Shown here piece by piece: positions 50,587 through 52,600 of a stretch of DNA of 64,000 bases. The first letter of the stretch is position 1; every line of letters starts with the position of its first letter. The DNA is from Escherichia phage LorandFenyves_Bas91: the sequence record PQ850614.1; one strand, given 5' to 3'. A program made the translations under genes and the position numbers. The notes below the pieces were generated by a model. It was not told the origin of the DNA. It did no database searches and worked only from the letters and a program-made list of their open reading frames with translations.

Positions 50587-50868
50587 TTACCACTCCTTAC
50601 CGGTTGTTGTTACAGAACCACCACACCACTGCGCATCGGATAAGGTTTTAGTCTCCTCATCTACTGCTGCACCATTCAGGCATGAGATACCACTGTAACG
50701 CATATCAATTTCACCAGAAGGAACCTTCTCGCCCTTATGCCAGCGAGAAACACAAACACCTTCCACTGCTACTGCACACCATCCATCAGGACGGCTCTGT
50801 ACGCAGCCTGTAAGGGCCACACAGACAAGGAAGATACAGATTAAGGATATTACACCACCCCAACTCAT
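50587..50868 (-). CDS. lipoprotein (Cys-rich)
   Basis: Signal peptide with lipobox LTGC. Confidence 0.45.
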   Translation of the reverse strand: MSWGGVISLICIFLVCVALTGCVQSRPDGWCAVAVEGVCVSRWHKGEKVPSGEIDMRYSGISCLNGAAVDEETKTLSDAQWCGGSVTTTGKEW

Positions 50869-51013
50869 AACTACCTCCTATTTGATTTGGTGGACTATCT
50901 GGAATCGAACCAGAAGCTCACTAAGAAAGTAATTCCCACTGTTATAAAAGCACTTGCCTCAACAGGGATACACTAACTCTGGTGCCGTACCCATACTAGC
51001 CCTTGTTTAAAAT

Positions 51014-51089
51014 TGGTCGGGACGGAAGGATTCGAACCCTCGTAAGGCGAGTTAGAAGCTCGCTGCCTGTTCCACTAGACTACGCCCCG
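51014..51089 (-). tRNA. tRNA-Arg (anticodon UCU), CCA encoded
   Basis: Hand-folded cloverleaf: acceptor CGGGGCG/CGTCCCG, D-stem GTCT/AGGC, anticodon stem GCGAG/CTCGC with loop CTTCTAA, T-arm GAGGG-TTCGAAT-CCTTC, discriminator A plus CCA. Confidence 0.85.
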
Positions 51090-51502
51090 ATAGATTTGAA
51101 ACCGTTATACTTACCTGCACATGATCTGTTACAAAAAGAATTTGCATATTTAACATTTCGCTTTTCTTTTTCAAAAGATCTTCCACAATAAGAGCAAACA
51201 ACTGAAATCATTGTTCTTCCAGTAGTTGCTTCTAATGTTGACTTCTTTCTGTGATTTTCTATGGAAAGTATCTGAAGATTAGATATGTCATCATTAGTTT
51301 TATTTCTGTCAATATGATCAACCTCCTCGTCTTCAGTTAGGTACCTGCCTATGTGACAAGACATTAAATATCTTGCGTAAGAAATGGTTGTCCTCTCCGT
51401 GTCGGTATTATACAAATCAACACGCTTCCTACCATCTCTGCTTGTTCTTAAGTAGCCCAATCGCCAGTCATTAACGAAGGGGTATTCTAACTCTATCTTC
51501 AA
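51080..51502 (-). CDS. HNH endonuclease (start uncertain)
   Basis: EVDHIDRNKTNDDISNLQILSIENHRKK HNH motif; track 3' end overlaps the tRNA by ~10 nt. Confidence 0.55.
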   Translation of the reverse strand: MKIELEYPFVNDWRLGYLRTSRDGRKRVDLYNTDTERTTISYARYLMSCHIGRYLTEDEEVDHIDRNKTNDDISNLQILSIENHRKKSTLEATTGRTMISVVCSYCGRSFEKEKRNVKYANSFCNRSCAGKYNGFKSIGA

Positions 51503-51536
51503 AACCCCTCCATTGAGCTAAGGGTGCTGAGTTTGT

Positions 51537-51788
51537 TTAACTAAAGATACGCAAGGCCACATCGTGACCGATATGACCGGGAACTTTATGCTGTTCTATT
51601 TTCAAACAGCGCTTACAGACACGAGATACACGAGACTCTTTTCTCTCGACTGGAGTGTCTTTAGCGTGAGTGATTTGAAGGTTTTCAGTGATCACCCACT
51701 CGTGTTTACATCCAGAATCTTCGGGCTTTTTCTTACGAAAGAACATAACACCCCTTAGATCAGATCTGTTTTCTTGTGCAGACCACAA
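51537..51788 (-). CDS. small Cys/His-rich protein
   Basis: GCKHEW...VCKRC pattern shared with two neighbouring small ORFs. Confidence 0.35.
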   Translation of the reverse strand: MWSAQENRSDLRGVMFFRKKKPEDSGCKHEWVITENLQITHAKDTPVERKESRVSRVCKRCLKIEQHKVPGHIGHDVALRIFS

Positions 51789-51928
51789 ACTTTACAGCGA
51801 GAGTAGATACGCAACCCTTGTCGCTCTCTGTCAGTAAGTTTATTTGTGATCGTCAGTTCATAAGTAGAAAGATCTTCCCACTCATGGAAATGAAAGAAGC
51901 GTTTGAACCATTTGATCATAATGATTCC

Positions 51929-52150
51929 TTAGATTACATCACGATGACTAACATCACCACACACCTTACACTGAATAACGTAACGTGTGCCCTTGTCATT
52001 ATTCCCATCTGAATCTGTATAGACCAGAGGGCGAGTATCAATAATCTTCCAATCATGACAATGAAAGACACGCTTTAGCCACTTGAACATATTAACCTCA
52101 AGCACAAGCAGGGAGTGTGATGATCTTATACTTACCATCAAACTCTCCAA
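51929..52150 (-). CDS. small Cys/His-rich protein
   Basis: Internal MFKWLKRVFHCHDW...CKVCG; paralogue of a 54-aa ORF at ~51755-51919. Confidence 0.35.
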   Translation of the reverse strand: MESLMVSIRSSHSLLVLEVNMFKWLKRVFHCHDWKIIDTRPLVYTDSDGNNDKGTRYVIQCKVCGDVSHRDVI

Positions 52151-52564: not shown

Positions 52565-52596
52565 TTAAAACAACAAAGGCCGCCCGAAGGCAGCCT
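52565..52596 (-). terminator. intrinsic terminator (UUCG-loop hairpin)
   Basis: Minus-strand RNA AGGCUGCC-UUCG-GGCGGCCU followed by UUUGUUGUUUU; same core as at 23328. Confidence 0.55.
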
Positions 52597-52600
52597 CTCT

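Follow-up and report, generated by a model that had tools for sequence, protein, structure and literature searches.

A candidate gene for a tRNA-like non-coding RNA beside tRNA-Arg in Kuravirus phages

A 116-nt element with a tRNA-like frame lies on the minus strand of Escherichia phage LorandFenyves_Bas91 (PQ850614.1), at positions 50888–51003 of the 64,000-nt stretch analyzed here (the window), between a tRNA-Arg(UCU) gene and a phage lipoprotein gene. The evidence, which is entirely computational, favors reading 51003→50888 (−) as the gene for a tRNA-like non-coding RNA that is neither a tRNA nor a decaying remnant of one, and we assign this reading a probability of roughly 0.55. The window is from a Kuravirus (a phiEco32/SU10-like coliphage), and the minus strand carries every gene in this part of it, in the order HNH endonuclease, tRNA-Arg, a 10-nt A/U spacer, the element, and, 10–15 nt farther on, the Shine-Dalgarno sequence of the lipoprotein gene. 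An initial annotation, made from the sequence alone, had noticed a T-arm-like sequence near the tRNA around which no cloverleaf could be completed, and had offered two readings, a second tRNA in decay or an element that resembles a tRNA. The second reading is supported by the conservation of the module in 29 relatives; the first is not supported, given the invariance of 112 of its 116 positions and its intact acceptor strands and CCA.

The T-arm is real: GGTTCGATTCC at 50901–50911 (−) sits within a full canonical arm, UCUGG-UUCGAUU-CCAGA (50898–50914, −; element 90–106, in a numbering where window coordinate = 51004 − p), which was read directly and is invariant in relatives. It lies ~100 nt from the 3′ end of the tRNA (50914 vs 51014) and not ~50 nt, as first supposed. 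The cloverleaf-like frame that the initial annotation could not complete closes when the acceptor-like 5′ strand GGGCUA (element 2–7; 50997–51002, −) is paired with UAGUCC (element 107–112; 50892–50897), which follows the T-arm and leads into an unpaired A (50891) and CCA (50888–50890), so that the directly read 3′ segment 50888–50897 (−) ends in ACCA (element 113–116) and the likely mature RNA runs 51002→50888. The six acceptor pairs (G-C, G-C, G·U, C-G, U-A, and A-U) were invariant in 7/7 haplotypes. In a constrained fold, the acceptor strand is followed by a D-like arm (element 11–24; 50980–50993, −) with a 3-bp stem, UGG/CCA, and the loop GURCGGCA, which has the GG and a purine at the R15-like position; a U also occupies the U8-equivalent position. 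The anticodon arm is replaced in both constrained and free folds by an irregular 57-nt hairpin (element 25–81; 50923–50979, −) with the apical loop A/G-AGU, a 4-nt tip that offers no 7-nt anticodon loop with U33, and eight unpaired nucleotides (element 82–89) separate this hairpin from the T-arm.

This combination of features is far above chance expectation. The sequence GGTTCGANTCC occurs twice in the 64 kb, counting both strands, once in the tRNA and once in the element, against 0.03 expected by chance. A composite tRNA-like frame, defined as a 5-bp T-stem with a TTCRANN loop, a 6/7-nt strand, NCCA, and a complementary 5′ strand 35–125 nt upstream, was found exactly twice in the window (tRNA-Arg and 50888–51002), compared with a mean of 0.015 per random 64-kb sequence. 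A covariance model built from the seven haplotypes found one copy in the window (146 bits) and aligned genuine tRNA-Arg genes end to end, with low scores (19 and 15 bits); the normal anticodon arm of tRNA-Arg took the place of the long hairpin in that alignment, and the end-to-end alignment indicates that the frame is tRNA-like.

To assess distribution, the element was compared by blastn with 50,697 phage records, 29 of which contained it, all at ≥95% identity and spanning Kuravirus, Suseptimavirus, and Nieuwekanaalvirus; none of these 29 GenBank records carries any annotation on it. The comparison with relatives suggested initially thus recovered both the T-arm and the whole 116-nt module. 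The homology blocks of relatives end at both edges: matches stop at 51003 in most records, and the match to EP335 covers exactly 50888–51003, so the element is a discrete module. Its neighbors differ, with two unrelated tRNA-Arg(UCU) alleles on one side and several different downstream genes on the other (in UKE3, SR02, TH42, and HC-25922 it precedes a gene other than the lipoprotein gene). Among the 20 copies that were read (19 GenBank phages and the window), only 4/116 positions vary, element 16, 25, 49, and 74 (window 50988, 50979, 50955, and 50930), all by A↔G exchange and together making up the seven haplotypes. Identity across the element was 96.6–100% (mean 98.5%), against 57–97% (mean 82%) in the next 330 bp (10 genomes); variation among relatives begins directly after the CCA and directly before the first A of the element, and within the element it is no greater than in the bona fide tRNA alongside.

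One alternative is a neutral relic, that is, a dead tRNA gene left by repeated insertion and deletion of HNH cassettes and kept similar by co-conversion hitch-hiking or by a recent horizontal sweep. The locus does gather tRNA fragments (51509–51527 in the window; one from each end of the gene in phage TH38); the 3′ half of the element can form an Arg-like hairpin with the loop UUUCUUA, and a 66-nt "tRNA-Arg(tct)" is reported there by ARAGORN once its threshold is set very low; and the element is accessory and has no known diverged homologues. The invariance of 112 of 116 positions beside flanks at 57–97% nevertheless argues against a decaying pseudogene, since a relic under no selection should change no more slowly than the coding sequences beside it, and it points instead to purifying selection on essentially every base. 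Co-conversion from a homing site would leave a gradient, which would not stop sharply at both ends or halt at the CCA. All four gametes were seen at several pairs of variable sites, and the occurrence of the four polymorphisms in all combinations suggests recurrent change or recombination limited to tolerated sites, not one recent sweep. In addition, the T-arm, the CCA, and both acceptor strands are intact, and the element is unlike any tRNA-Arg allele at the locus. We therefore regard a relic as unlikely.

Near-total invariance at paired and unpaired positions alike is unusual for an RNA, and homing endonucleases are active right alongside, both of which would fit a DNA-level element, with the 116 bp serving as a target for homing, a site of recombination, or a binding site for a protein, and with tRNA-like features that merely reflect its ancestry. 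None of the 20 copies is interrupted by an insertion, however, the outstanding features are those of RNA (T-loop, complementary acceptor strands, and CCA), and the polymorphisms that fall in stems preserve pairing; a role at the level of DNA thus seems highly improbable. The two stem sites are 50979, where G25·U81 alternates with A-U, and 50930, where U32-A74 alternates with U·G, and the other two lie in loops (50988, A/G, in the D-like loop, and 50955 in the apical loop), so that the cloverleaf-like model is 100% paired in all seven haplotypes. The competing unconstrained fold, a rod, pairs G25 with C91, and because G25A breaks that pair in 2/7 haplotypes, the tRNA-like fold is mildly favored.

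Several observations weigh against an RNA gene of this kind. When the fold is constrained to contain the acceptor, the T-arm, and the D-like stem of 3 bp, its predicted energy is −31.2 kcal/mol, 4.5 kcal/mol less stable than the unconstrained minimum-free-energy rod (−35.7 kcal/mol), which destroys the T-arm, and the z-score against shuffled sequences is only −1.9. The known copies are all ≥96.6% identical, so that none is diverged enough to show two-sided covariation, and the structure rests on thermodynamics and the two one-sided changes. The acceptor/T helix has 11 bp (6 + 5) instead of the canonical 12. The element is absent from phiEco32 and most Gordonclarkvirinae, and is thus accessory. 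No diverged homologue was found in IMG/VR (scanned five ways, by four DNA patterns and one lipoprotein-neighbor search), GTDB species representatives, 5,426 E. coli genomes, or metagenomic relatives, and none of 15 related loci reached through the lipoprotein neighbor (six from IMG/VR and nine metagenomic) contained the element. It is still conceivable that the element is a young, horizontally spreading sequence.

Two loci hold other sequence in the same slot. In IMGVR_UViG_2595698804, a ~100-nt insert (2248–2350) between tRNA-Arg and the next open reading frame (ORF) closes with a long terminal stem (CCCUAAGAUGC...GCAUCUUGGGG) and has ...CUACCA as its 3′ terminus; this insert is possibly another small RNA, distinct from the element. 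In O18-011, a 480-nt ORF (584–1063, −) stands in place of the element, between the cassette tRNA-Arg and the lipoprotein gene; the GenBank note for that tRNA gives "anticodon TTC", while ARAGORN calls tct.

Standard tools pass over the element. ARAGORN called only tRNA-Arg, both by default and with introns allowed at the default threshold, so the tRNA software that the initial annotation had named as a check detected no second tRNA; the Rfam tRNA model gave no match to the element at E ≤ 10, even on a 138-nt stretch alone, and no Rfam family matched 2.5 kb of the locus or the element alone at that threshold. The sole alignments to the tRNA clan were non-significant ones of ~7 bits to the 3′ ends of transfer-messenger RNA (tmRNA) models, for which the gathering scores are 47–84, and an ARAGORN search for tmRNA returned none in the window. 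Measured against a canonical tRNA, the element has a T-Psi-C-type loop in its T-arm, GG in the D-like loop, and A-CCA; its acceptor has 6 bp in place of 7, and a 5-bp anticodon stem with a 7-nt loop (U33, purine 37) is lacking. Published Kuravirus genome descriptions based on tRNAscan-SE and ARAGORN likewise list one tRNA only and make no reference to the element (PMC9965538; PMC4281155).

The length of the element, 116 nt, equals a tRNA-like skeleton of ~71 nt plus ~45 nt, and would also suit a decoding tRNA (e.g., Arg-UCU or Asn-GUU) from which an intron or large insertion is removed to leave ~71 nt. With introns on and the threshold at ≤80% of default, ARAGORN does propose a tRNA-Asn(gtt) that has a 22-nt intron and whose variable arm measures 26 nt. 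At the default threshold with introns, however, it makes no call, and the models drawn at low thresholds disagree with one another; removing the insert in silico, in five different ways, yielded no sequence recognized as a tRNA; and the candidate anticodon loop, an alternative small hairpin with the loop UUUCUUA, has U at position 37 and leaves a variable region of just 2 nt. Self-splicing group I introns are much longer than an insert of 45 nt, and bacteria are not known to have a tRNA splicing endonuclease. We consequently rejected an intron-containing tRNA and find it barely credible as an explanation.

Other identities were also tried and set aside. The element is not a remnant of a phiEco32-type tRNA-Arg, as the first BLAST overlap consisted of the shared T-loop only and both the stems and the acceptor differ. 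An 11-codon ORF within it (MGTAPELVYPC; AUG 50994–50992, stop 50961–50959, −) has no convincing Shine-Dalgarno sequence and is probably not coding, because both polymorphisms inside it are non-synonymous first-position changes. An origin from a host or bacterial tRNA found no BLAST match in the 5,426 E. coli genomes, and the single 20-mer match among GTDB representatives, within a Marinobacter coding region, was attributed to chance.

If the element is an RNA gene, its expression would follow from the layout: it would be transcribed within a long minus-strand early-gene transcript, after tRNA-Arg(UCU) and before the lipoprotein gene. A consensus scan, with a tool that does not include the phage's own sigma-factor promoters, found no sigma-70 promoter or intrinsic terminator between the HNH gene, tRNA-Arg, the element, and the lipoprotein gene. 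Farther upstream on the same strand, a strong terminator-like hairpin (52575–52598, −; 10 bp, six of them G-C pairs, with a GTTGTTTT tail) may delimit the transcription unit of the HNH gene, the tRNA, and the tRNA-like RNA. To judge from its sequence and structural features, the acceptor-like stem, D-like arm, and T-arm of the transcript could form a tRNA elbow for the host tRNA-processing machinery, upon which the 5′ end would be made by RNase P, at G51002 or beside it, and the 3′ end by RNase E and 3′ exonucleases, trimming as far as the CCA at 50888; a stable RNA of ~115 nt would thereby be released, by analogy with RNAC and RNAD beside the tRNA-Arg of phage T4. In E. coli tRNA precursors, RNase E cuts just past the encoded CCA and RNase P acts at the 5′ end (PMC2190699).

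The same processing could matter in cis only, with the element acting as RNase P/RNase E "punctuation" that separates tRNA-Arg from the lipoprotein mRNA or defines and stabilizes the 5′ end of that mRNA, the excised RNA itself having no role. Its CCA does lie 10–15 nt upstream of the lipoprotein Shine-Dalgarno sequence, and in phiEco32 the CCA of tRNA-Arg abuts the same junction (AAUCAAAUAGGAGG) before the lipoprotein gene. That the tRNA alone fills this position in phiEco32 nevertheless means that an extra 116-nt module is not needed for it; moreover, the gene following the element is a different one in UKE3, SR02, TH42, and HC-25922, and punctuation would require conservation of the acceptor/T region without fixing each base of the 57-nt hairpin, yet that hairpin is invariant too. 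A purely cis-acting signal accordingly strikes us as having only a small chance of being the explanation.

Because it has no anticodon loop, the predicted RNA could not decode and would have to act as a tRNA mimic, with the 57-nt hairpin instead of an anticodon arm. Speculatively, it may become charged with alanine or, alternatively, bind or titrate a host factor that binds tRNA, such as a tRNA-directed defense nuclease, SmpB, or EF-Tu. Counted from G51002, a predicted 5′ end, the top of the helix reads G1-C72, G2-C71, G3·U70, A73, and CCA, which is the identity set of alanyl-tRNA synthetase (AlaRS). The set G-C, G-C, G·U, and A-CCA makes tRNA-Ala, tmRNA, and minihelices substrates of AlaRS, and G3·U70 with A73 is reportedly enough for recognition even in minihelices (Hou and Schimmel 1988; Francklyn and Schimmel 1989). 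The 11-bp helix makes the RNase P cut site uncertain, and hence also whether the G·U pair falls at 3:70 or 4:69, since a cut before A51003 would shift it to 4:69. Charging of the RNA by AlaRS is a guess from these terminal base pairs. The fuller proposal, in which an anticodon-less, alanine-accepting tRNA mimic, effectively a free-standing tmRNA-like tRNA domain released from the tRNA-Arg transcript and charged by AlaRS, acts as a decoy or interferes in SmpB/EF-Tu ribosome rescue or with a tRNA-targeting anti-phage nuclease, is a long shot.

The tRNA next to the element is the sole tRNA called by ARAGORN in the 64-kb window, a tRNA-Arg(tct) at 51014–51089 (−) with an encoded A-CCA at its 3′ end, as the initial annotation had it, and with 52.9 bits to the Rfam tRNA model. 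It is a "type A" allele carried by the HNH cassette and is followed by the 10-nt A/U-rich spacer (AUUUUAAACA; 51004–51013, −; read directly), which in relatives with the other tRNA allele is 5 nt long (CAUUU). The HNH reading frame at 51080–51502 (−) also proved to be genuine, encoding a free-standing endonuclease of 140 aa with a TTG start that matches Pfam HNH_3 (E = 2.4e-6; 27.5 bits against a cut-off of 24.8) and overlapping the 5′ end of the tRNA by 10 nt. Its suspected mobility is supported by its presence or absence in close relatives, by the tRNA-Arg allele that travels with it, and by a 19-nt fragment of a displaced tRNA upstream. Specifically, the gene is absent from SU10, UKE3, EP335, SkaterBoy, ShigP1, and others, which carry a type B tRNA-Arg, whereas the members of this HNH family that were read (in the window, CHD5UKE1, YF01, and O18-011; the same region is covered in KM01) are all followed by an intact type A tRNA-Arg, which differs in the anticodon stem. 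The type A allele and its spacer are also present in TH42 and HC-25922.

The fragment, GCACCCUUAGCUCAAUGGA (51509–51527, −), aligns with the tRNA of UKE3 and SU10 and comprises the acceptor 5′ strand and the start of the D-arm of an older tRNA-Arg. It directly precedes the start codon of the HNH gene and at its end runs into that gene's Shine-Dalgarno sequence (GGAGGGG), and its position corresponds to the exact start of the intact tRNA in the HNH-less relatives UKE3 and SU10. The locus therefore does contain a genuine tRNA remnant, at 51509–51527 and not at 50888–50915, where one had been suspected. Besides the window, three phages have such a 5′ fragment upstream of their HNH gene, and it is longer in each of them: O18-011 (30 nt, into the anticodon stem), Bas93 (27 nt), and TH38. 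In Escherichia virus TH38 (MT446410.1), the region 850–1360 holds a second, unrelated HNH gene on the opposite strand and a third tRNA-Arg(tct) allele (935–1009), inserted into a type B tRNA-Arg of which a 5′ fragment (~1345–1370) and a 3′ fragment, from the anticodon loop onward (~855–900), are left; the element follows unchanged. Because a 5′ tRNA-Arg fragment precedes the HNH start, we interpret the cassette, by comparison of these sequences, as an insertion into an older tRNA-Arg gene that brings its own replacement tRNA. The fragments and substitute alleles together mark the tRNA-Arg gene as a recurrent homing target, and the substitute alleles are presumably resistant to cleavage. O18-011 has the cassette without the element, which shows that the two modules are independent of each other.

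A separate, ~100-nt structured RNA resembling tRNA-Arg was observed after a homologous HNH gene in AidaStucki_Bas93 (~690–800, −), L029 (~1395–1495), and L022 (upstream), none of which has a normal tRNA there. It has the anticodon-type loop CUUCUAA, a T-arm, and a terminal stem of up to 18 bp but no CCA; its 7-bp acceptor covaries between phages (GAGGAUG/CAUCCUC vs GGGGAUU/AAUCCCC), its fold z-scores are −5.8 and −3.1, and ARAGORN does not call it.

Across 1.1 kb around the locus, the window is 99.8% identical to Escherichia phage vB_EcoP-CHD5UKE1, and this 1.1-kb region matched 118 phage records, nearly all Gordonclarkvirinae (phiEco32/SU10-like podoviruses). The downstream gene, at 50587–50868 (−), encodes a phage lipoprotein (Pfam Phage_lipoprotein, 124 bits). 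Just upstream of the tRNA locus, three tandem small ORFs (51537–52150, −; 83, 54, and 73 aa) share the motif (F/W)xKRxFHxHxW ... CK(V/R)CG and look like a paralogous family of small zinc-ribbon-like proteins, to judge from that motif; the first of them had no match in Pfam.

That small stable RNAs, e.g., T4 RNAC and RNAD, are encoded in the tRNA regions of phages was already recognized in the 1970s. If the element encodes such an RNA, an unrelated phage family carries its own, previously unannotated version in the same position, by tRNA-Arg and a homing endonuclease, and would add an independent system, amenable to experiment, in which to study what these small RNAs do, as SU10 and phages of the BASEL collection grow on E. 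coli K-12 or laboratory strains. The terminal base pairs offer a sharp hypothesis, namely alanine identity elements on an RNA unable to decode, and, given the current interest in phage tRNAs as a means to counter tRNA-cleaving defense, a conserved tRNA mimic is a plausible candidate for an anti-defense or translation-modulating factor. More generally, the standard annotation of one tRNA per Kuravirus genome (PMC9965538) misses tRNA-like genes, and the tRNA-Arg locus of these phages is a hotspot at which HNH cassettes swap the tRNA for their own allele.

Among known systems, canonical phage tRNAs (RF00005) resemble the element in the acceptor stem, the GG of the D-like arm, the UUCGAUU T-loop, the CCA, and the position in a tRNA operon, but the element has a 57-nt hairpin in place of a 17-nt anticodon arm, no usable anticodon loop, and a 6-bp acceptor. 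The tRNA-like domain of tmRNA and the acceptor/T minihelices of tRNA-Ala are similar in the top of the acceptor (G-C, G-C, G·U, and A-CCA, a likeness that depends on the predicted 5′ end), in the T-arm GGUUCGAUUCC, and in a long helix standing for the anticodon arm, with no anticodon. The 3′ end, GGUUCGAUUCC..AUAG-UCCACCA, resembles those of tRNA-Ala and tmRNA less one base pair, the acceptor of the element being one pair shorter at 6 bp. Unlike tmRNA (~250–400 nt), the element is 116 nt long, has no pseudoknots or tag reading frame, and has a D-stem, which tmRNA lacks. The bacterial Y-RNA-like YrlA is comparable as a non-coding RNA whose T-arm and D-arm imitate the elbow of a tRNA, as reportedly described by Chen et al. 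(2014), and would likewise be expected to be handled by tRNA enzymes; the ends of YrlA, however, form a Ro-binding stem, not an acceptor stem with CCA, and no YrlA match was obtained in Rfam scans at E ≤ 10, nor is there an rsr/Ro gene context at the locus.

For the HNH cassette, as distinct from the tRNA-like RNA, the closest parallel drawn here is T4 SegB, whose gene also adjoins tRNA-Arg. SegB-type genes are polymorphic for presence or absence among close relatives, with co-inherited flanking sequence (PMC2988022), and the same is true of the HNH cassette; SegB, however, lies between tRNA genes, whereas the cassette lies inside a disrupted tRNA-Arg and brings a complete substitute allele. 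The element itself is best compared with the neighboring T4 RNAC (species 1, 139 nt) and RNAD (species 2, 119 nt), the functions of which are described as unknown (PMC3014915; PMC9697503). The order and strand logic are the same (segB, tRNA-Arg, rnaD, and rnaC); the T4 small RNAs lie within a few nucleotides of tRNA-Arg, as the element lies 10 nt after the CCA of its own; and RNAC has a T-arm-like CCGGGUUCGAAUCCCGG near its 3′ end, while RNAD ends in CACCA. Alignment for homology to rnaC and rnaD was uninformative, and the covariance model scored 12.7 bits (E = 0.26) on rnaC and did not match rnaD, so with no detectable sequence homology the element is not a member of the RNAC or RNAD families. 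The endonuclease here is of the HNH type and the phage a Gordonclarkvirinae podovirus, in contrast to the GIY-YIG endonuclease and the Straboviridae affiliation of T4, and the predicted Kuravirus RNA has a fuller tRNA frame than either RNAC or RNAD, comprising a D-like arm, an acceptor that pairs perfectly, and ACCA encoded at the 3′ end.

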